Shown: piece after piece, positions 1,353-54,795 of the stretch | Numbering within the stretch: the first letter of the stretch is position 1 | Layout: the number at the start of each line of letters is the position of its first letter | Assembly: GCA_937879955.1 (NCBI GenBank) | Contig: CALFMK010000001.1 | Coordinates: forward strand, 361,853-425,852 | Origin: an uncultured bacterium | GTDB taxonomy: Bacteria; Patescibacteriota; Minisyncoccia; Phycocordibacterales; Phycocordibacteraceae | Direction: 5' to 3' | DNA length: 64,000 nt | Program-made: the position numbers and the translations under genes | The notes under the pieces: model-generated | Seen by the model: the letters and a program-made list of their open reading frames with translations, nothing else | Databases searched by the model: none | What the model was told of the DNA's origin: nothing

Positions 1353-2570
1353 CTAGTGTCCGTGGCCCGGCACGATGATACCGTCGAAGATCGTCTTGTC
1401 CTCCGGCCCCGTGACCGTAAGCATGCCCCAGGCTCCGCGTTCCGTACGCGCGAGCGCATGATCGACGAGCATGTAGCTGCCTGGGACTTGGGTCACGAAT
1501 TCGACCGCGGTCGCTCCACCTGCTGGCACCGCGGTCGTCTGTATGTCTTCCGCAGGCGAAGAGAGTGACCCTTCCCGATACACGCGGTCGAATATCTCGC
1601 CGATGACATGGAAGGACGATACGAGGTTAACGCCGCCGTTACCGAAGTAGATGCGCACGCGATCCCCCACCTCGGCCTGCATGCGGTTGCTGAGCCCTCC
1701 CGTCTTTCCATTGAAGACGACGTATGTCGGCCTGCCATCGAGCATCGCCTGGGCATCGAAGAGCTGGAGTCCCTTGCGACCCATGCCGCCGCTCGCATAG
1801 AACTCGCCCTGCATGACGTAATACTCCTTATCGACCTCTGCGAGCCCCTCGGCCGGCTCCACGAGGATGAGTCCGTACATCCCGTGCGTCATATGATTCG
1901 GAACGTTCGGGGTCGCGCAATGATAGACGAACAGGCCTGGATTCAGAGCCTTGAACGTAAAGGTTGCAGATTCTCCGGGCGCGACCATGCTCGCGGACGC
2001 GCCTCCGCCCGGGCCGGTCACCGCGTGCAGGTCTATGTTGTGATGGTGCAGGCTGGTCGGATCATTATGGAGGGTCAGCTCGACCGTATCTCCTTCGCGC
2101 ACACGGAAGAACGGTCCGGGCACGGTACCGTCATAGGTCCAATAGTTCATGAGCACGCCGGGGGCAATCTCCGCTATCACTTCCTTCGCCGTAAGCTCGA
2201 GCTTCACGGTAGCAGGCTCGGTACGCCCCGTCGGCGGCGGCACGTCATTCGGATCGCGTGCGATATCCTCGACCTTCTCGAACGAATCGAAATGCGTGAA
2301 GAAGCTGATGACGTTCTGTACCGGCATCGTCGGTCCGGAAGCGGTGCCATAGGTCCGCATGGAGAGCGGGAACTCAACGCCATTGGGTAATCCGTTCGGC
2401 ACATAGAAGAACATGGAGACGCCGAGGAACACGATGACGGCGGTGATGCGCATCCAGAACGAGTGCAGCTGGCGCAGTGCGAGATAGATGAAAATCGCAG
2501 CGAATATGAAGGCGATAGCCAGTCCCGCTACCTGTACGAAATATGACCAGGTATAGGCAAATAGTTGCAT
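1353..2570 (-). CDS. nirK: copper-containing nitrite reductase NirK (multicopper oxidase type) with N-terminal membrane anchor
   Basis: Type-1 and type-2 copper ligand motifs are present (HHHNIDLHAV; HCATPNVPNHMTHGMYG). There are two cupredoxin domains and two predicted TM helices in the first ~60 aa. Confidence 0.85.
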   Translation of the reverse strand: MQLFAYTWSYFVQVAGLAIAFIFAAIFIYLALRQLHSFWMRITAVIVFLGVSMFFYVPNGLPNGVEFPLSMRTYGTASGPTMPVQNVISFFTHFDSFEKVEDIARDPNDVPPPTGRTEPATVKLELTAKEVIAEIAPGVLMNYWTYDGTVPGPFFRVREGDTVELTLHNDPTSLHHHNIDLHAVTGPGGGASASMVAPGESATFTFKALNPGLFVYHCATPNVPNHMTHGMYGLILVEPAEGLAEVDKEYYVMQGEFYASGGMGRKGLQLFDAQAMLDGRPTYVVFNGKTGGLSNRMQAEVGDRVRIYFGNGGVNLVSSFHVIGEIFDRVYREGSLSSPAEDIQTTAVPAGGATAVEFVTQVPGSYMLVDHALARTERGAWGMLTVTGPEDKTIFDGIIVPGHGH

Positions 2571-2860: not shown

Positions 2861-2927
2861 ACGAAACGGGCCGAAGCCCGTAACGTTGGTACTGTACCGG
2901 TTTTGCCCTCTGAGGGCAAGATGGGTG

Positions 2928-3001
2928 TGCCGACGCCAAGATTTGCACTTGGGACCTTCTCTTTATGAGTGAGATGCTCTAACTACCTGAGCTACGCCGG
3001 C
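2928..3001 (-). tRNA. tRNA-Met/Ile2-like (anticodon CAT), possibly aberrant (G at T-loop position 55, A31-A39 mismatch)
   Basis: Acceptor GCCGGCG/CGUCGGC, D-arm TAGCTCAGGTAGTTAGAGC, anticodon loop CTCATAA. The T-arm is CCAAG-TGCAAAT-CTTGG, i.e. G instead of the conserved U55. Confidence 0.5.
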
Positions 3002-18934: not shown

Positions 18935-18988
18935 GACACGGATACGGAGCAGCAAGAAAGCGCCCGCGAGGGCGCTTTCTTTATCGTG

Positions 18989-19059
18989 TTGCGGGGGCCG
19001 GAATCGAACCGGCGTCTGGAGGTTATGAGCCTCCCGAGGTACCTCTCCTCTACCCCGCT
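18989..19059 (-). tRNA. initiator tRNA-Met (anticodon CAT)
   Basis: Acceptor and T-arm are near-identical to E. coli tRNA-fMet (GCGGGG...GGTTCGATTCCGGCCCCCGCAAC). Position 1-72 is unpaired (A.A), and the anticodon loop is CTCATAA. Confidence 0.75.
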
Positions 19060-45758: not shown

Positions 45759-47939
45759 ATGAAGCCCGAGGACCTCGTCTCCCAGCATTTCACCCGCCTC
45801 AAGCCCGACCAGAAGCGGGCGCTCGAGAAGCTCGGTATCCGCACGATCCTCGACCTGCTCTATCACTTCCCCGCCCGCTACGAGGCGGCAGGTCCGACCG
45901 GTACCATCGGGAGCGCCACTGCCGGCAGCGAGGTGACGCTCTACGGCACCATCCGGAAGCCCGAGGCGAAGAGGGCGTGGAAATCGAAGCGGCCCATGGG
46001 AGAGGCATGGCTCGAGGACGCGTCAGGGCGCATGAAGCTCCGCTGGTTCTCGCAGCCCTACATCGCGAAATCGCTCGCGGACGGCATGGTGGTGAAAGCG
46101 TCCGGGAAGATCGCGGGGACCGGCGACAAGATCTACCTCGCGAACCCCGAGATAGACCGCTCCCCCGTGAACCCGGAGGACGTGCACGACACCCTCTTCA
46201 CGGCCGCGGACGAGGTCGGCACGCAGATCCTCGAGGACACCCTGTATGCGATCTACCCGGAATCGAAGGGCGTCTCCTCGCTCTGGTTCCTGCACGCGAT
46301 GAAGCGCGTGTTCGAGGCGGGCGTGCACGAGCGTCTCGCCGACCCCATCCCGAAGGACATGCTCGACCGGTACAGCCTCCCGACCCTCGCGACCGCGCTC
46401 ATCTGGATGCACGCGCCGAGGAAGCTGCCGGACGCGCAGGCGGCGAGGAAGCGCTTCGCGTTCCAGGAGGTGCTCTCGATCCAGCTCACCACGCAGCGCA
46501 GGAGACTCGAGGCGACGCAGGAGCGCGCGCTCCCGGTGGACGCGAACCGCGAGGCGCTCCGCGCATTCATGGACTCGTTTCCCTTCCCGCCGACCGACGC
46601 CCAGGAGTCGTCCATCGAATCGATCGTCGCGGACTTCGAGAAGCCGCACCCGATGCGCCGTCTCCTCGAGGGCGACGTCGGCAGCGGCAAGACCGCGGTC
46701 GCGGCCGCCACCGCCTACATGGTGGCGAATTCCCGCCCGCCGGGCCGCAAGGCAGGTACGCTCCAGGTCGCGTACATGTGCCCGACCGAGATCCTCGCGA
46801 AGCAGCACTTCTCGACCTTCGTCTCGTACTTCAAGGACCACCCGATCCCGATCGGCCTCATCACCGGCAGCGAGTGCCGGAAGTTCCCCTCGAAGGTGCG
46901 ATACGAGGAGTCCGCGAAGGTCTCGCGCGCGCAGTTCGCCAAGTGGGTGGCGAACGGCGAGATCCCGATCGTCATCGGCACGCACGCGCTCGTCTATAAG
47001 TCACTGAAGTTCCAGAATCTCGCGTACGCGATCATCGACGAGCAGCACCGCTTCGGGAAGGCGCATCGCCAGAAGCTCACCAGGAAGGACGGGCAGCTCT
47101 CGCCGCATCTCCTCTCCATGACGGCGACGCCGATCCCGCGCACGCTCGCCCTCTCCATATACGGAGACCTGGACCTCTCGCTCCTCGATCAGATGCCGCT
47201 CGGAAGAAAGCCCATCATCACGGAAGTGCTCGGTCCCGAGAAGCGCGAGCAGGCGTACGAGCGCGTGAAGAGCGAGCTTTCGGCAGGACACCAGGCATAC
47301 GTGATCTGCCCGCGCATCGACGAGCCAGACCCCGCGAAGGAGTTCGCCGTACAGGCGAAGAGCGTGAAGGCGGAGGCGGAACGGCTGAAGCGGGACGTGT
47401 TCCCTGACGCGGAGATAGACATCCTGCACAGCAAGATGACGCCGAAGGCGAAGGAGGACGTGATGAAGCGGTTCGAGGACGGCACGGTCGACATACTCGT
47501 AGCGACATCGGTCGTGGAAGTGGGCGTGAACGTGCCGAACGCGACCGTGATCCTCATCGAGGGCGCCGAGCGCTTCGGTCTCGCCCAGCTGCATCAGCTG
47601 CGCGGCCGCGTGATCCGCTCGAGCAACCAGGCGTACTGCTTCGCGCTCCCGAACTCCTACGGACCCGTCACGAAGGAGCGCCTCAAGGCCCTCACCACGG
47701 CGAAGAACGGATTCGAGCTCGCCGAGTACGACCTCGCGCTCCGCGGCGCGGGCGAACTCTACGGCGCGCGCCAGTGGGGCGTCTCGGACATCGCCATGGA
47801 GGCCCTCAAGAACATAAAGATGGTGGAGGCTGCCCGGAAGGAGGCGCAGGCGCTCGTGAAGAAGGATCCGGAGCTCAAGAAGCACCCGCTCCTGGCCGCG
47901 CTCGCGAAGGAGGCGGACGAGGAAGTGCATCCTGAATAA
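45759..47939 (+). CDS. recG: ATP-dependent DNA helicase RecG
   Basis: Wedge domain, Walker A GDVGSGKT, DEQH box and helicase C-terminal motifs, 726 aa. Confidence 0.9.
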   Translation: MKPEDLVSQHFTRLKPDQKRALEKLGIRTILDLLYHFPARYEAAGPTGTIGSATAGSEVTLYGTIRKPEAKRAWKSKRPMGEAWLEDASGRMKLRWFSQPYIAKSLADGMVVKASGKIAGTGDKIYLANPEIDRSPVNPEDVHDTLFTAADEVGTQILEDTLYAIYPESKGVSSLWFLHAMKRVFEAGVHERLADPIPKDMLDRYSLPTLATALIWMHAPRKLPDAQAARKRFAFQEVLSIQLTTQRRRLEATQERALPVDANREALRAFMDSFPFPPTDAQESSIESIVADFEKPHPMRRLLEGDVGSGKTAVAAATAYMVANSRPPGRKAGTLQVAYMCPTEILAKQHFSTFVSYFKDHPIPIGLITGSECRKFPSKVRYEESAKVSRAQFAKWVANGEIPIVIGTHALVYKSLKFQNLAYAIIDEQHRFGKAHRQKLTRKDGQLSPHLLSMTATPIPRTLALSIYGDLDLSLLDQMPLGRKPIITEVLGPEKREQAYERVKSELSAGHQAYVICPRIDEPDPAKEFAVQAKSVKAEAERLKRDVFPDAEIDILHSKMTPKAKEDVMKRFEDGTVDILVATSVVEVGVNVPNATVILIEGAERFGLAQLHQLRGRVIRSSNQAYCFALPNSYGPVTKERLKALTTAKNGFELAEYDLALRGAGELYGARQWGVSDIAMEALKNIKMVEAARKEAQALVKKDPELKKHPLLAALAKEADEEVHPE

Positions 47940-47959
47940 GGGTGCGATACAGTACAGGG

Positions 47960-48033
47960 GCACCCTTAGCTCAGTTGGTTAGAGCACCGAGCTTATACCT
48001 CGGCGGTCCTTGGTTCGAGTCCAAGAGGGTGCA
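47960..48033 (+). tRNA. tRNA-Ile with anticodon TAT (UAU)
   Basis: Acceptor GCACCCT/AGGGTGC, D-arm TAGCTCAGTTGGTTAGAGC, perfect anticodon stem CCGAG/CTCGG, loop CTTATAC, T-loop TTCGAGT. Confidence 0.7.
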
Positions 48034-48106
48034 CCGATTTACGGGAAGTGCGTAGACGGGGCTTTTCTGGTACGGTGCAATCAGGTAAGACAGAAGGAGT
48101 ACTGAT

Positions 48107-48352
48107 GTGCCTATAATGATTGCACTGTTCCTTTGGGGACCGATGGCGATCCGTGAAGGACGACGTGCAGGATGGTTCTACGCCCTCGCGATCGTCCTCA
48201 TAACCCTCATCGTCACCCTCGCGTACGTGACCTTCGCCATCGCCCCGACGCCGATGGCAAACTATGGCCTCGTTCCCGCAGCGCATCTCTGGTACGCGCT
48301 TGCTGGTACCCTGTACTGGCTCACGCGCAAGAGCTCGCTCGCGAAAACCTGA
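48107..48352 (+). CDS. small two-TM membrane protein (hypothetical)
   Basis: 81-aa hydrophobic ORF downstream of tRNA-Ile. Coding evidence is weak. Confidence 0.3.
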   Translation: MPIMIALFLWGPMAIREGRRAGWFYALAIVLITLIVTLAYVTFAIAPTPMANYGLVPAAHLWYALAGTLYWLTRKSSLAKT

Positions 48353-48421
48353 CCCGGTACGGTCACGATGAAAAGAATAATGGCGGACTCTCGCGAGTCC
48401 GCCATTTCCTTATAACTACCG

Positions 48422-50422
<2,001 letters not shown>

Positions 50423-50890
50423 ATGCTGGTACCCTTCCTATATATGAGCGCACTCATAGAGAACAAGAAGGCGCGCCTCCGGTTCGAGGTGCTTGAGACC
50501 TACCAGGCAGGCCTCGAGCTCCAGGGGTTCGAGGTGAAATCCGTCCGGGCGAAGCTCGGCAGCCTCGACGGCTCCCGCGTGATCGTGCGCGGGGGCGAGG
50601 CCTTCATCGTCGGCATGACGGTCCCTCCCTACCAGGCCGCGAACGCGCCCAAGACCTATGACCCAGAGCGTCCGCGCCGCCTCCTCCTCTCGCGCAAGGA
50701 GATCGTCGAGCTGCTCGAGGCAGAGTCGAAGAAAGGATTGACACTAGTGCCTTTGGAACTGTATAATAGTGGCAGATACCTGAAGGCACGCATCGCCATC
50801 GTCCGCGGAAAAGGCAAGGCTGACAAGCGCGAAGACATGAAGCGCATGGAGGCTAAGAAGGAAGCGGACCGTGCGATGCGCCAGAAGTAG
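50423..50890 (+). CDS. smpB: SsrA-binding protein SmpB
   Basis: Conserved SmpB blocks (IENKKA..F, GFEVKSV, RKLLL.K.EI). The real start is probably at 50444. Confidence 0.8.
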   Translation: MLVPFLYMSALIENKKARLRFEVLETYQAGLELQGFEVKSVRAKLGSLDGSRVIVRGGEAFIVGMTVPPYQAANAPKTYDPERPRRLLLSRKEIVELLEAESKKGLTLVPLELYNSGRYLKARIAIVRGKGKADKREDMKRMEAKKEADRAMRQK

Positions 50891-51258: not shown

Positions 51259-51667
51259 GGGGGTGACCGGCTTTGACGGTCCTGTACTTTGAGAGACGTG
51301 CGGCGCGGTGGAAGGATGCTGACCACCTAAAAACGCATTCACCCAAACTTGCCAAGAACACTCTTGCAAGCGTGAAGTCCCCGTACTTCGGTATGAAGGA
51401 TTTCGCGTTCGCTTACGCGTAAAAGCTTCGCGCTTTCGCCTGAGCGACGTTCATGCAGTCCCGTTCCTTCAGGGGTCTGTATGGGCGGAATCATCTGAAG
51501 GATCGGTATCGCGGCTTTCCCAGGCCACGGCTTAAAAGACGGGATCAGGCAGGGGCGTTTTCGCTAACGTTCCTATTCCCCTGCCGAAGCTTCAACGTTA
51601 GCTACGCGCCGTAGACTCGCTCTTGAAGCAGGATTCGGACCGGAGTTCGACTCTCCGCACCTCCACC
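51259..51667 (+). ncRNA. ssrA: tmRNA (ssrA), standard one-piece
   Basis: 5' GGGGGUGACCGGCUUUGACGG matches the tmRNA 5' consensus. The 3' tRNA-like end is GGACCGGAGTTCGACTCTCCG-CACCTCC-A-CC, whose acceptor is complementary to the 5' end. It lies 370 bp downstream of smpB. Candidate tag ORF is ...KSPYFGMKDFAFAYA*. Confidence 0.7.
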
Positions 51668-51693
51668 GATATAGAACTATGTAGAAATACATA

Positions 51694-51746: not shown

Positions 51747-52142
51747 CTACTTCCCGTACCAAGCTTTCTGCCAATCTTGCATCTCTTTAATCTCGGCGTT
51801 CTGTGCAGAGATTATGTTCTTTGCCAGGTCCTTTATCTCTTGATGCTTTGCATCCTTGAGGGCTGCCTCTGCCATTACTACTGCTCCCTGATGATGCATG
51901 ATCATCTCGCTCAAGAACGCTTGATCAAATGCATCTCCTGTTTTTCCAGAGAGACCCTGCATCATGGAATCCATTTCTCCCTGCATCCCGTTCATTGGAC
52001 CTCCCATGGTCGTTCCGTCGGCCATCATATGGCCACCAGTATTTACTACTGGCTCGGAAACCTTATTCATGCCCAGAGCGTATCCACCGCCGGCACCGAT
52101 AATAAGTGCGACGAGCCCGATAACAACTACGTTCTTTTCCAT
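51747..52142 (-). CDS. DUF305 family protein (secreted or membrane-anchored)
   Basis: DQAFLSEMIMHHQGAVVMAE...AEIKEMQDW matches the DUF305 signature. It is in a lower-GC region. Confidence 0.6.
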   Translation of the reverse strand: MEKNVVVIGLVALIIGAGGGYALGMNKVSEPVVNTGGHMMADGTTMGGPMNGMQGEMDSMMQGLSGKTGDAFDQAFLSEMIMHHQGAVVMAEAALKDAKHQEIKDLAKNIISAQNAEIKEMQDWQKAWYGK

Positions 52143-52182
52143 AGAGTTTAATTAGATTAGATAAGTAGAGAGTTTGCTAAAT

Positions 52183-52551
52183 CTATGGAGCCTTAGGGTG
52201 AAGAATCCCGCGTGAGAATAGCTCTTGCAACAATGGAGGTGCTGGATAGAAACGTCTGCGATATCCGGGCGGCCGTTCGGGCCTTGGAACAATGGGCCAA
52301 ACCCTTGCGAGAATAAAGACAGGTATGGCAAACGTGAGAATCTCGACAAGTGCGATAGTAAACGTATTCTGCCAGCTTGTTATGTGGTCCAAGGCTGACA
52401 TGGGACAGAGCGAAGTTTCACCCTGCATGAAGGGACATCCGCCAGGTGTCTGGTCCATAGGCATGGCCATTAAAAACAGCATCAGGAGAGGAACGGTGAG
52501 CACGAGGAGTAGCGTCCCCCAGGAACCAGCCCTCTGTATCTGCTCGGTCAT
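52183..52551 (-). CDS. small membrane protein with Met/Cys-rich motif (MPMDQTPGGCPFMQGETSLCPM), a putative metal-binding site
   Basis: Two or three TM helices. The Met-rich Cys pair is reminiscent of Cu(I)-binding motifs. Confidence 0.4.
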   Translation of the reverse strand: MTEQIQRAGSWGTLLLVLTVPLLMLFLMAMPMDQTPGGCPFMQGETSLCPMSALDHITSWQNTFTIALVEILTFAIPVFILARVWPIVPRPERPPGYRRRFYPAPPLLQELFSRGILHPKAP

Positions 52552-52630
52552 GCACTCATTCTATACCTATTGTTTATGGACAAAAGGTACACTTCTTCTA
52601 GGTATTACTGGCTCACAGCACATAAATTTT

Positions 52631-53089
52631 ATGACCCCCAGAGACACGTCATACGGCAAGCTGGCCCTAATGGCCGGACTTCACTTAATCGCAATGTTCT
52701 TCCTCATGTTCGCGATGGTAAATACTTTTGCGAACGCCATTCCGAATATTAACTTCGTCTATATGGCCGCTCTTATGACCGCGCCGATGCTCATTCTCGA
52801 GATACTTCTTATGGGAATGATGTACAAGGACAGGAAATTAAATGTGACGGTTGTTTGTTTTGGCCTTATACTCCTTGCGGTTTCATTCTTACTTATTCGA
52901 TTCCAGACAGGTGTTGGAGACAGGGGGTTTCTCCAATCCATGATTCCTCATCACTCAGGAGCAATTCTCATGTGCGAGAAGGCAAACATCACTGATCCTG
53001 AGATCAAACAGCTGTGCGACGACATTATTCTCAGCCAGCGACAGGAGATAACTCAGATGAAAGAAATTCTTAGTCGACTGGACCGATAA
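52631..53089 (+). CDS. DUF305 family protein (second copy)
   Basis: Two TM helices, then MIPHHSGAILMCE...QEITQMKEIL, which is the DUF305 signature. Start set at MTPRD, since the upstream ORF-track extension overlaps the minus-strand gene. Confidence 0.55.
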   Translation: MTPRDTSYGKLALMAGLHLIAMFFLMFAMVNTFANAIPNINFVYMAALMTAPMLILEILLMGMMYKDRKLNVTVVCFGLILLAVSFLLIRFQTGVGDRGFLQSMIPHHSGAILMCEKANITDPEIKQLCDDIILSQRQEITQMKEILSRLDR

Positions 53090-53324
53090 ATGGCAAATCG
53101 AGGTAGGTTCTAATCTGAAAGCACCCGACTTCCATGTTTGTATGGACTGGTTGGCCTCTGCTCATTTTGACACCCTACCAACTGTCCGCTACAGAAAGGA
53201 AATACGAAGCCCTGCTTTCCAGTCATGAGGCTCTAACTTCGTGTAGCCACTTCCATCCAGTTTCAATAAAAGGCCTCTTCGGAGGCCTTTTATGTTGGCA
53301 CGTCTTGACGGTTTTTTTGGGGTT

Positions 53325-53981
53325 TTATTCTGCGCGCAGACTATCTACTATCTGGTCCACAACACTATCAGGGATGACCTGATCTTCTGAGCGGTCATAC
53401 CACATGGCTATGACTGGATACGAGGGATTCTTTGTCTCGATGAACGTTACGAAGAAAATCTCATCGCCGCACTCTTCGAAACCATTGCACGCAGGCAGAT
53501 ACCCGACCTTAACTACCGTTAGCCCGTGGGCGTTGACGCTCTTGGCGCAGGAAAGCGGGTATAGACCCTGATCGCAATACTTGTGAATGTCCCAGGTGCG
53601 AAGCGTATCTTCACGCGAAGGCTCGCGCGGGGTCGGATACTGTGCGAACAATGCGCTCTCTGCCGACATGAACCAGAGCGTGCCATTCTTGCCGGCAACT
53701 CCTAAGTAACGGTGATCGCACTGATCTTCGGGGGTACGGAGTTCCGGCGGACAGTCGCCCCGCTCCCTCACCGCTTCCTCTATAGGGCTTTCGAGCGAGT
53801 ACTCGAAGGCGATGCCTAGGGCGGGGCTTACATAGGTGCGCGTAGAGTACGTATCTTGCACGCTGTGGTTCTCCCCTTCCCTGGTCACTCCTAGCATGAA
53901 TCCGAGAACTGCCACGATGACGAGCGCGACCCCGAGCAGCAGCGCGCGGAGGAGCGGAGAATTGATTATGGTCTTATACAT
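53325..53981 (-). CDS. membrane-anchored hypothetical protein with Cys-rich extracytoplasmic domain
   Basis: N-terminal TM and several Cys pairs. No family recognised. Confidence 0.45.
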   Translation of the reverse strand: MYKTIINSPLLRALLLGVALVIVAVLGFMLGVTREGENHSVQDTYSTRTYVSPALGIAFEYSLESPIEEAVRERGDCPPELRTPEDQCDHRYLGVAGKNGTLWFMSAESALFAQYPTPREPSREDTLRTWDIHKYCDQGLYPLSCAKSVNAHGLTVVKVGYLPACNGFEECGDEIFFVTFIETKNPSYPVIAMWYDRSEDQVIPDSVVDQIVDSLRAE

Positions 53982-53985
53982 ACGA

Positions 53986-54795
53986 TTATGTTGCTAGCCA
54001 GCCCCCGTCAACATAGAACGTTGCCCCCGTGCAATAGCTTGACTCATCGGAAGCAAGGAACGCGACCAGTGCTGATACCTCCTCTGGCTTTCCCATTCGC
54101 TTGAGCGGTATCCCTGCAAGCATCTGATCGCGCGTCTCACTCGTGGCATCGGAATTTCGCACCATGGGCGTATCTATGGCTCCTGGAGCGATCGCGTTTA
54201 CAAGAATGCCGTGCGGCGCAAGCTCGATCGCCAGCGCTTCAGTCATGGCGATAACTCCGCCCTTCGACGCCGCGTAATGCACGCCTCCAGCGATGCCGAT
54301 TCCCACCTGCCCAGAGGCTACGGAGGAGATATTGATTATCCTCCCGCCTCCATCCCTAGCCATCTCCTGTGCAGCGCGCTGAGCGCACAGGAACTGTCCC
54401 TTGAGATTCACATCGAGCATGCGGACCCATGCTTCTTCCGTAAGCTCAAGCGCAGGCGCGGTCTCGTAGATGCCTGCGTTATTCACCAGGATATCCAGCC
54501 GACCATACTTCATGATGATGCCGGCAATGACCTCATTGACTTCATGCTTCTGGGATACGTCGAGACGGAAGCAGGTGGACTCGCTATCGCACACCTCATT
54601 CACCTCCTGCATGACCCTGCGGCAATCGTTCAGATTCACATCGGTAATGATCACCGTTGCTCCCTGCTTGGCGAGCGTGAGCGCGTGAGTGCGACCCATT
54701 CCCCTTCCTGCCCCCGTAATGAGCGCGACTTTGTCTTTGAGGCTGAACATGCGCATGGCGTTAGGTTGGATAATGTATGGCGCGTCTTCTAGCAT
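53986..54795 (-). CDS. SDR-family oxidoreductase (short-chain dehydrogenase/reductase)
   Basis: TGAGRGMG cofactor motif, NNAG, and the catalytic S...YAASK triad. Confidence 0.85.
   Translation of the reverse strand: MLEDAPYIIQPNAMRMFSLKDKVALITGAGRGMGRTHALTLAKQGATVIITDVNLNDCRRVMQEVNEVCDSESTCFRLDVSQKHEVNEVIAGIIMKYGRLDILVNNAGIYETAPALELTEEAWVRMLDVNLKGQFLCAQRAAQEMARDGGGRIINISSVASGQVGIGIAGGVHYAASKGGVIAMTEALAIELAPHGILVNAIAPGAIDTPMVRNSDATSETRDQMLAGIPLKRMGKPEEVSALVAFLASDESSYCTGATFYVDGGWLAT

Follow-up and report, generated by a model that had tools for sequence, protein, structure and literature searches.

The stretch of DNA analysed here, 64 kb of contig CALFMK010000001.1 (assembly GCA_937879955.1, positions 361,853 to 425,852; hereafter the window), carries on its forward strand, at 47960..48033, a tRNA gene with the anticodon TAT, lodged in the gap between the convergent genes recG and ftsH. 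We are highly confident that this is a real, functional tRNA-Ile gene whose product reads AUA. It is probable, at a lower level of confidence, that the tRNA is a vertically inherited derivative of tRNA-Ile2 that reads AUA without lysidine and most likely replaces the pair formed by tilS and tRNA-Ile2(CAU).

The gene, which spans tRNA positions 1-73, was called by ARAGORN as tRNA-Ile, anticodon tat, at 47960..48035(+), a call extended over a following 'CC'. Rfam RF00005 matched 47960..48033 along model positions 1-71 of 71 with 71.4 bits against a threshold of 29 (E = 1.3e-13 for the whole window), the top score among the five tRNAs of the window. The sequence (GCACCCU UA GCUC AGUUGGUUA GAGC A CCGAG CUUAUAC CUCGG CGGUC CUUGG UUCGAGU CCAAG AGGGUGC A) forms a canonical 74-nt, 7/4/5/5 cloverleaf in which 21/21 stem pairs are Watson-Crick, and it is canonical at U8, A14, G18G19, U33, A37, the T-loop and the discriminator A73. 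The anticodon U34 A35 U36 occupies 47994..47996 (gene position 35 in ARAGORN) within a 7-nt loop, CUUAUAC (C32-U-U-A-U-A37-C38), at 47992..47998. The original prediction, based on folding by hand, had described a canonical cloverleaf with this loop and this anticodon; ARAGORN, Rfam and the sequence agree on it, and automated folding with ARAGORN assigned no alternative anticodon. Most of the cloverleaf also emerges when the single sequence is folded for minimum free energy (z = -2.9). The gene ends in A73-C-C-G, so that CCA is incompletely encoded and must be finished post-transcriptionally. Position 34 is T in the window tRNA and in all of its relatives, and not the C34 that is the substrate of TilS; with U in place of C at this position, no lysidine would be needed.

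The stop codon of recG (45759..47939, +; Pfam RecG_wedge, DEAD, Helicase_C and RecG_dom3_C; PDB 1gm5, E = 3e-114) lies 20 nt before the tRNA. On the other side, sequence reading and the list of open reading frames (ORFs) give a small ORF of 81 amino acids (48107..48352, +), with a GTG start and AAGGAG 7 nt upstream, that is likely to encode a membrane protein. It is separated from ftsH (48422..50422, -; Pfam Peptidase_M41, AAA and FtsH_ext) by an intrinsic-terminator-like site found by consensus scan, a 12-bp GC-rich hairpin with a T-run just past the ftsH stop (48379..48406, -). Divergent from ftsH is smpB (50423..50890, +; Pfam SmpB, E = 2e-42), and beyond it lies a tmRNA gene (51259..51668, +; Rfam RF00023, 94.2 bits), which Rfam calls and ARAGORN does not, although ARAGORN does call tmRNAs in several related loci. 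A consensus scan found no sigma-70 consensus promoter upstream of the tRNA(UAU) gene. Just 5' of it, a short block (GnTAnAGTACAnGG) is conserved between the window and its closest relative, and may be a tRNA promoter element.

Identity of the tRNA body and conservation of the locus

According to the discriminators of Silva et al., C3-G70 occurs in Met and fMet tRNAs, G3 or A3 marks tRNA-Ile(CAT), in which C4-G69 and C5-G68 are also common, and A11-U24 with G12-C23 marks fMet (PMC1635315). The tRNA(UAU) of the window has A3-U70, C4-G69, C5-G68 and A73, all discriminators of the Ile(CAT) type. Its mean identity is 72% to three Ile2-type CAU tRNAs of the candidate phyla radiation (CPR), 60% to 33 elongator tRNA-Met and 57% to 25 initiators, and 96 of 97 UAU tRNAs are nearer to Ile2 than to Met. 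By its sequence, then, the tRNA looks like a tRNA-Ile2-type body with U34.

The host is, judging from the genes it carries, a high-GC bacterium of the Patescibacteria (CPR, Paceibacteria-type), a reduced lineage of the kind from which tRNA-Ile(UAU) had been said to be known. RecG homologues with 76-96% identity all come from metagenome-assembled genomes (MAGs) of Patescibacteria, Parcubacteria or Paceibacterota. In the closest relative (L001, RecG 96%), the tRNA(UAU) is kept between recG and ftsH with a single compensatory swap, C28-G42 to G28-C42 in the anticodon stem, and tRNA-Ile(tat) occupies the same position in two further relatives, L168 (RecG 86%) and L169 (RecG 76%; a 960-kb contig of GCA_037200965.1). 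Both of these carry further compensatory changes, and G1-C72 to C1-G72 is also among those seen in the relatives. L001 (12246..15092, corresponding to 47940..48420 of the window) holds three additional genes between recG and ftsH, inserted on the recG side of the tRNA: one resembling dihydroorotate dehydrogenase genes, an ORF of 373 aa and a gene for a CxxCxxCC protein.

We then scanned one genome per GTDB species with a degenerate pattern combining a canonical D-arm with CTTATA at the right distance. Judged by record title, at least 55 of the 120 matches listed are CPR, at least 26 are archaea (mostly DPANN), at least nine Planctomycetota, at least six 'uncultured Gammaproteobacteria' MAGs, at least three Chloroflexota and at least two Ignavibacteria, the others being scattered or unclassified. 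The CPR matches listed include Kaiser-, Jorgensen-, Taylor-, Nomura-, Magasanik-, Uhr-, Curtiss-, Levyi-, Dojka-, Peri-, Shapiro- and Moranii-bacteria, as well as Paceibacterota and many MAGs of Saccharibacteria. ARAGORN confirmed tRNA-Ile(tat) in at least 95 of the listed loci; of the archaeal copies, its bacterial mode recognised fewer than half. The view that a genomic tRNA-Ile(UAU) is rare thus does not extend to the host's own group, where the gene also holds a conserved position beside recG and ftsH.

Alignment of 57 distinct CPR tRNA(UAU) sequences yielded a cloverleaf consensus with compensatory double changes at 16/21 pairs, a count in which the invariance of the D-stem is imposed by the search pattern. 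The anticodon loops of the CPR homologues read CTTATAC in 36 and CTTATAA in 22. By tblastn, recG and/or ftsH lie within the 8-kb locus of the tRNA(UAU) in at least 35 loci, from Paceibacteria to Saccharibacteria; in these the tRNA always sits in or beside the convergent recG/ftsH gap, with an orientation that flips between lineages. Besides the window, ftsH adjoins the tRNA in at least 27 loci, and smpB is divergent from ftsH, as in the window, in 11 other UAU-bearing loci. This pattern points to a U34 tRNA-Ile gene that many CPR lineages share in a fixed syntenic position, and on comparative grounds the window gene is conserved and most probably vertically inherited.

Outside the CPR, the matches show layouts of their own. 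At three archaeal loci, from one 'uncultured archaeon' and two 'archaeon' MAGs (L062 2518-4942, L074 1427-3858 and L114 7045-7978), the tRNA(UAU) or pattern match adjoins a co-oriented homologue of isoleucyl-tRNA synthetase (IleRS), which shares 31-37% identity with E. coli IleS. In three Planctomycete loci (L038, L053 and L057), tRNA-Ile(tat) belongs to arrays with 17-35 tRNA genes, flanked in every case by tRNA-Lys(ttt) and tRNA-Lys(ctt), and some tRNAs of these arrays receive 4-base anticodon calls. The tRNA-Ile(tat) of Actinomyces sp. ZJ308 (L012 2802..2896) is 95 nt long; its 20-nt insert after the anticodon stem holds a motif of the GAU-type anticodon loop, CTGATAA.

The rest of the window fits a Parcubacteria-type organism, with a type IV pilus set (PilB, PilC, PilM), LigA, GatA, RNase J, malic enzyme and multicopper oxidase. 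Its GC content is about 62%, and the 2-kb intervals around the tRNA(UAU) (0.64-0.65) are in line with the rest. The GC content at third codon positions (GC3) ranges from ~0.45 in L168, whose RecG is 86% identical, through 0.62 in L169 to 0.80 in the window, a spread among close relatives that implies a fast, recent GC shift in the lineage. A local dip to 0.50 at 52000..54000 coincides with a DUF305 protein (52292..53089) that is unusually rich in Met (20 ATG in 265 aa), and this GC-poor segment may be acquired DNA. At 1353..2570(-), a two-domain multicopper oxidase (Cu-oxidase_2, Cu-oxidase_3), possibly NirK-like, adjoins a tRNA-Met/tRNA-Asp pair.

TilS, tRNA-Ile2 and the meaning of AUA

AUA is the one sense codon whose reading depends, in nearly all bacteria, on the prior conversion of a CAU anticodon by the essential enzyme TilS. 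This enzyme was detected in 98% of 1093 genomes and has been described as evolutionarily stable (PMC6063277), and nine TilS-less species with tRNA-Ile(UAU) were known in 2013 (PMC3575796), figures that support the initial assumption that the lysidine route is usual and tRNA-Ile(UAU) exceptional among well-studied bacteria.

Neither tilS nor a canonical tRNA-Ile2(CAU), which the original prediction had set against a working UAU gene, was found in the ~64 kb of this genome examined. Searches of the window and of ~1.26 Mb of other loci with the regular expression SGG.DS and with tblastn, using an E. coli TilS and then TilS sequences from CPR, Zixibacteria and Clostridium, detected no TilS or PP-loop homologue in the window itself or among the UAU-bearing loci, and a Pfam scan of the genes upstream of ftsH in two loci (L099, L100) did not find the TilS domain. 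An Ile2-type CAU tRNA was likewise not found in the window and the syntenic loci, where the CAU tRNAs seen are all of the fMet and Met types. The window holds exactly one of each, and the same pair is present in related contigs.

The first of these, an elongator tRNA-Met(CAU) at 2927..3001 (-; ARAGORN; Rfam 60.1 bits), had been suspected of being a decaying Ile2 or elongator partner on account of an aberrant T-loop. The T-loop is indeed unusual (UGCAAAU, with G at the usual U55), it goes together with a D-loop (AGGUAGUUA) that has A18 in place of G18, and the anticodon stem has an A31xA39 mismatch. The acceptor GCCGGCG (C3-G70, G4-C69) is of the Met type, however, and the D-stem GCUC/GAGC lacks the fMet signature A11-U24, G12-C23. 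A metagenome scan for this variant, which required G55 but allowed any base at D-loop positions 16-18, recovered 41 contigs (L122-L162) spanning 23-61% GC, with compensatory stem changes. Among 26 distinct elongator-type G55 sequences, all but one have A at position 18, and A18/G55 thus suggests, at the sequence level, an exchange within the tertiary pair 18-55 of the tRNA elbow. A tRNA-Asp gene comes next in 32/41 contigs, as in the window; among sequences with this Met-Asp layout, position 31-39 is always A.A or A.G (20 distinct sequences) and C3 is kept in 36/36. The gene is therefore the normal, conserved and lineage-specific elongator tRNA-Met, not a decaying one, let alone an Ile2 partner. 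Two Ile2-like CAU tRNAs with G55 were considered as a third CAU tRNA of the lineage and set aside, as no link to it could be established: the contig of one (L159) has a single unannotated 495-aa ORF and no CPR marker, and that of the other (L139), at 23% GC, contains no ORF as long as 80 aa.

The second CAU tRNA is the initiator tRNA-fMet at 18988..19059 (-; ARAGORN; Rfam 58.9 bits), recognised by A1xA72, A11-U24 and G12-C23. It has A1xA72 in place of the usual bacterial C1xA72, and A29-U41 replaces the first of the three conserved anticodon-stem G-C pairs. Several initiators in the G55 contigs (L123-L160) combine D-loop variants with matching T-loop variants (AGAGGTA with TTCGATT; AGTAGTA with TGCAATT or TGCAAAT; AAAAGTA with AGCGTTA), a pattern suggestive of covariation of the elbow contacts.

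TilS does occur within the CPR, and there it occupies a characteristic site. Among ~95 CPR loci with tRNA(UAU) or the Met-G55 tRNA, a single exception to its absence was found, a Met-G55 contig (L129) in which a TilS gene starts right after the fMet and Met tRNAs. Used as a seed, this TilS led to a clade, L129 included, whose roughly 85 TilS proteins are short (318-355 aa) and beyond which scores fall sharply to generic long TilS; the annotated members are listed as TilS from 'Patescibacteria group bacterium' or 'Candidatus Berkelbacteria'. In a TilS-positive set of four distinct loci (L163 and its duplicate L164; L165; L166; L167), tilS directly precedes ftsH and murJ comes next, the initiator and elongator Met tRNAs being placed just before tilS. 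The block as a whole comprises clpB, YkuD, CAP, DivIC, tRNA-fMet and tRNA-Met, tilS, ftsH and murJ, and its TilS is short (~330 aa), without the C-terminal TilS_C domain. An Ile2-type CAU tRNA (GGGCCYG...) is found about 5-8 kb away in 3/4 distinct loci (L163, L166 and L167), the TilS-positive loci having two or three CAU tRNAs each, and no tRNA(UAU) was found within the 15-21 kb retrieved around tilS-ftsH. In UAU-bearing loci, the tRNA stands at the 3' end of ftsH, with smpB or other genes upstream of ftsH; in the window, it is smpB that occupies the side of ftsH where tilS sits in TilS-positive CPR. TilS-positive and UAU-positive CPR are complementary in their layouts at the ftsH locus.

The foremost alternative to replacement of TilS is that the tRNA(UAU) is a redundant decoder, working alongside tilS and a tRNA-Ile2(CAU) located elsewhere in the genome. 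Several observations weigh on this side and against replacement. Only 64 kb were seen, at most about a tenth of the genome as judged from the 0.5-1 Mb contigs of relatives, and tilS and a third CAU tRNA could lie in the remainder; other CPR do have TilS, in a clade of their own; and some bacteria carry both systems, as documented for Lactobacillus casei and L. plantarum and, with redundancy proposed, for these and for Cyanothece and Ferrimonas (PMC3575796). The window also contains no IleRS gene, nor any ORF >840 aa; tblastn with an E. coli IleS found IleRS beside archaeal tRNA(UAU) copies only, the CPR loci giving ValRS-like and MetRS sequences, and a synthetase fragment in L005 proved to be MetRS. 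Against redundancy stand the lack of TilS and of an Ile2-type CAU tRNA in the window, in L001, L168 and L169 and in the ~95 CPR loci apart from L129, the occupation of the canonical tilS site by smpB, and the lack of tRNA(UAU) near ftsH in TilS-positive CPR loci. Suggestive in the same direction, none of the best 120 of 5495 TilS matches lies on a contig equal in length to any contig of the window's RecG relatives, six of which measure 0.5-1 Mb, a comparison that extends over those best 120 matches. We therefore favour replacement over supplementation of the TilS route, with reasonable if not strong confidence, and give redundancy a minor but real chance.

Codon usage does not decide between the two. 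With genes called by GC3-GC2 contrast, 72 ORFs of the window contain 169 ATA, 66 ATT and 784 ATC; 29 high-confidence genes contain 82, 17 and 540, respectively (7.8 AUA per 1000 codons), and 11 Pfam-verified genes contain 47 ATA and 10 ATT (ATC not summed). The AUA share of Ile codons is thus about 13-19% in the window, and 13% in the high-confidence genes. Across relatives it is ~17-26%, and ATT drops as GC3 rises from 0.45 (L168) to 0.80 (window). We considered and rejected special selection as the cause of AUA exceeding AUU at a GC3 of ~0.85, given that the AUA share is steady in relatives and that TilS-positive CPR are equal in AUA use. A simpler account of AUA outnumbering AUU is that the transition from AUU to AUC is synonymous but that from AUA gives AUG (Met); the pattern is evidence that AUA is readable, and of nothing exotic. 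AUA use in UAU-positive CPR loci is not clearly above that of TilS-positive loci at similar GC3, a further point that lends replacement no help, and this similarity means that codon usage does not discriminate between the decoding systems.

A much less probable alternative, which we regard as very unlikely, is that the gene is an accessory tRNA of mobile or phage origin, recently gained to boost the reading of AUA. The occurrence of tRNA-Ile(tat) in the Planctomycetes arrays described above and on a Streptomyces plasmid (L021) gives it some plausibility, but the window gene is a single one amid the core housekeeping genes recG, ftsH, smpB and tmRNA, at least 35 loci from deep CPR lineages keep it in the same position, neither integrase genes, att sites nor repeats were seen around it, and the flanking GC matches that of the window. 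The synteny in relatives, their compensatory changes and the covariation across the CPR therefore rule out recent mobile acquisition, as they do a pseudogene or a chance fold.

It is slightly less credible still that the tRNA has another identity, either because AUA has been reassigned (for instance to Met, as in many mitochondria) or because mutation of a tRNA-Arg(UCU)-like or Met-like gene has produced a tRNA that carries another amino acid. ARAGORN isotype names rest on the anticodon only, and the best blastn match among E. coli genomes is a tRNA-Arg, at 75.7%, which speaks against an isoleucine tRNA at face value. Whole-sequence similarity alone therefore gives no clean isotype call, and we rejected blastn against E. 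coli as uninformative for isotype. The main determinants of arginyl-tRNA synthetase are A20 and C35, both of which the tRNA(UAU) lacks, having U at D-loop position 20 and A at position 35; its acceptor discriminators and its greater similarity to CPR Ile2(CAU) than to Met and fMet tRNAs speak for isoleucine. The codon itself gives the same answer. Among 141 codons aligned to window ATA sites in RecG, FtsH and SmpB of other CPR loci, there are 29 ATT, 25 ATA, 22 ATC and 6 ATG, and the amino acids are Ile in 54%, Leu in 21%, Val in 11% and Met in 4%, a profile that resembles that of ATC sites and is unlike that of ATG sites, where Met reaches 57%. At five RecG ATA sites, solved non-CPR RecG structures have I, F/A, L/V, I/L and L/Q, never Met. 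Since ATA sites align with Ile, Leu and Val and not with Met, or with Arg, AUA keeps its standard meaning and is read as Ile in the host lineage.

That the gene is a pseudogene or a chance cloverleaf, for which the incomplete CCA end and nothing further could be cited, is negligible beside the 71.4-bit score, perfect stems, compensatory substitutions, synteny and use of AUA throughout housekeeping genes.

Decoding model and comparison with known systems

In the model we propose, the tRNA(UAU) would be transcribed from the convergent recG/ftsH gap, completed at its 3' end by the CCA-adding enzyme and charged with isoleucine, and would read AUA by Watson-Crick pairing of U34 with A, probably as the only AUA decoder of its lineage. 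It would have originated from a tRNA of the tRNA-Ile2 type (acceptor N-C-R3-C4-C5-C6) through a change of C34 to U that made TilS dispensable. By analogy with Mycoplasma mobile and Bacillus subtilis, AUG could be avoided through an unmodified U34 together with properties of the ribosome and IleRS. Charging by IleRS, the absence of tilS and tRNA-Ile2(CAU) from the whole genome and the way in which misreading of AUG is avoided are elements that we infer.

Many CPR lineages, the host's included, may have given up the lysidine system and read AUA with a U34 tRNA-Ile tied to ftsH, a broader proposition that we put forward tentatively and hold to be somewhat doubtful. If true, this would be the largest exception at the level of a clade to the rule that bacteria need lysidine to decode AUA, naturally TilS-independent species having so far been described as a scattered handful, and AUA/AUG discrimination would rest on a CPR-specific adaptation of IleRS or the ribosome, or on an undescribed U34 modification. 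Should TilS prove absent genome-wide, the CPR would offer a natural system for studying how U34 avoids AUG, annotators should not flag CPR tRNA-Ile(UAU) genes as anomalies, and one would expect such lineages to lack markers built on TilS. The TilS N-terminal model TIGR02432 belongs to the GTDB bac120 marker set. In the library searched, we found no paper that connects CPR, Patescibacteria or Saccharibacteria with lysidine, TilS or tRNA-Ile(TAT). tRNA-Ile(UAU) in TilS-less bacteria is already known, and the window gene is an ordinary, expected part of the translation apparatus of its lineage.

One of the closest known systems is that of Mycoplasma mobile, which likewise has a reduced genome and a genomic bacterial tRNA-Ile(UAU) reading AUA (Taniguchi et al. 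2013, PMC3575796; Silva et al. 2006, PMC1635315), a tRNA that stands in for tRNA-Ile2(CAU) and TilS. There, the absence of TilS and discrimination against AUG have been demonstrated: U34 is unmodified, IleRS has Arg865 at the site of the Trp (E. coli W905) that otherwise stacks on base 34, and AUG is not accepted on the cognate ribosome (PMC3575796). M. mobile is a single species of the Tenericutes, whereas the gene described here belongs to a high-GC lineage of the CPR and recurs in many lineages at a conserved locus. Another close case is a B. subtilis delta-tilS suppressor, a G34U variant of tRNA1-Ile (Kohrer et al. 2014, PMC3919564), whose U34, also unmodified, sustains AUA decoding with weak AUG binding, discrimination against AUG on the cognate ribosome and little AUG misreading. 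The suppressor is a laboratory product derived from tRNA-Ile1(GAU), whereas the window tRNA is a natural gene of the Ile2 type. By these two precedents, the anticodon modification that had been thought necessary for avoiding AUG is not required (PMC3575796, PMC3919564).

Other systems share the anticodon and differ in their setting. Bifidobacterium and Neorickettsia are TilS-less and have tRNA-Ile(TAT), but use a horizontally acquired IleRS of eukaryote type, and L. casei, L. plantarum, Cyanothece and Ferrimonas have tRNA-Ile(TAT) but retain TilS (PMC3575796). U34-type AUA decoders are also found in other domains of life: in archaea lacking TiaS, which have tRNA-Ile(TAT) (PMC3575796) and whose domain contributes the D-arm and anticodon pattern matches, mostly DPANN, reported above; and in eukaryotes, whose anticodon, a UAU with pseudouridines (PsiAPsi), needs Psi34 and Psi36. 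The canonical pair of tilS and lysidine-bearing tRNA-Ile2(CAU), including the short, Berkelbacteria-like TilS, performs the same task of reading AUA as Ile with a tRNA body of the same type (C4-G69, C5-G68, R3-Y70), and both systems are linked to ftsH. They differ in position 34, which is C in the canonical tRNA and U in the window, and in their layout, with tilS upstream of ftsH in TilS-positive CPR and, in the window, the tRNA at the 3' end of ftsH and smpB upstream.

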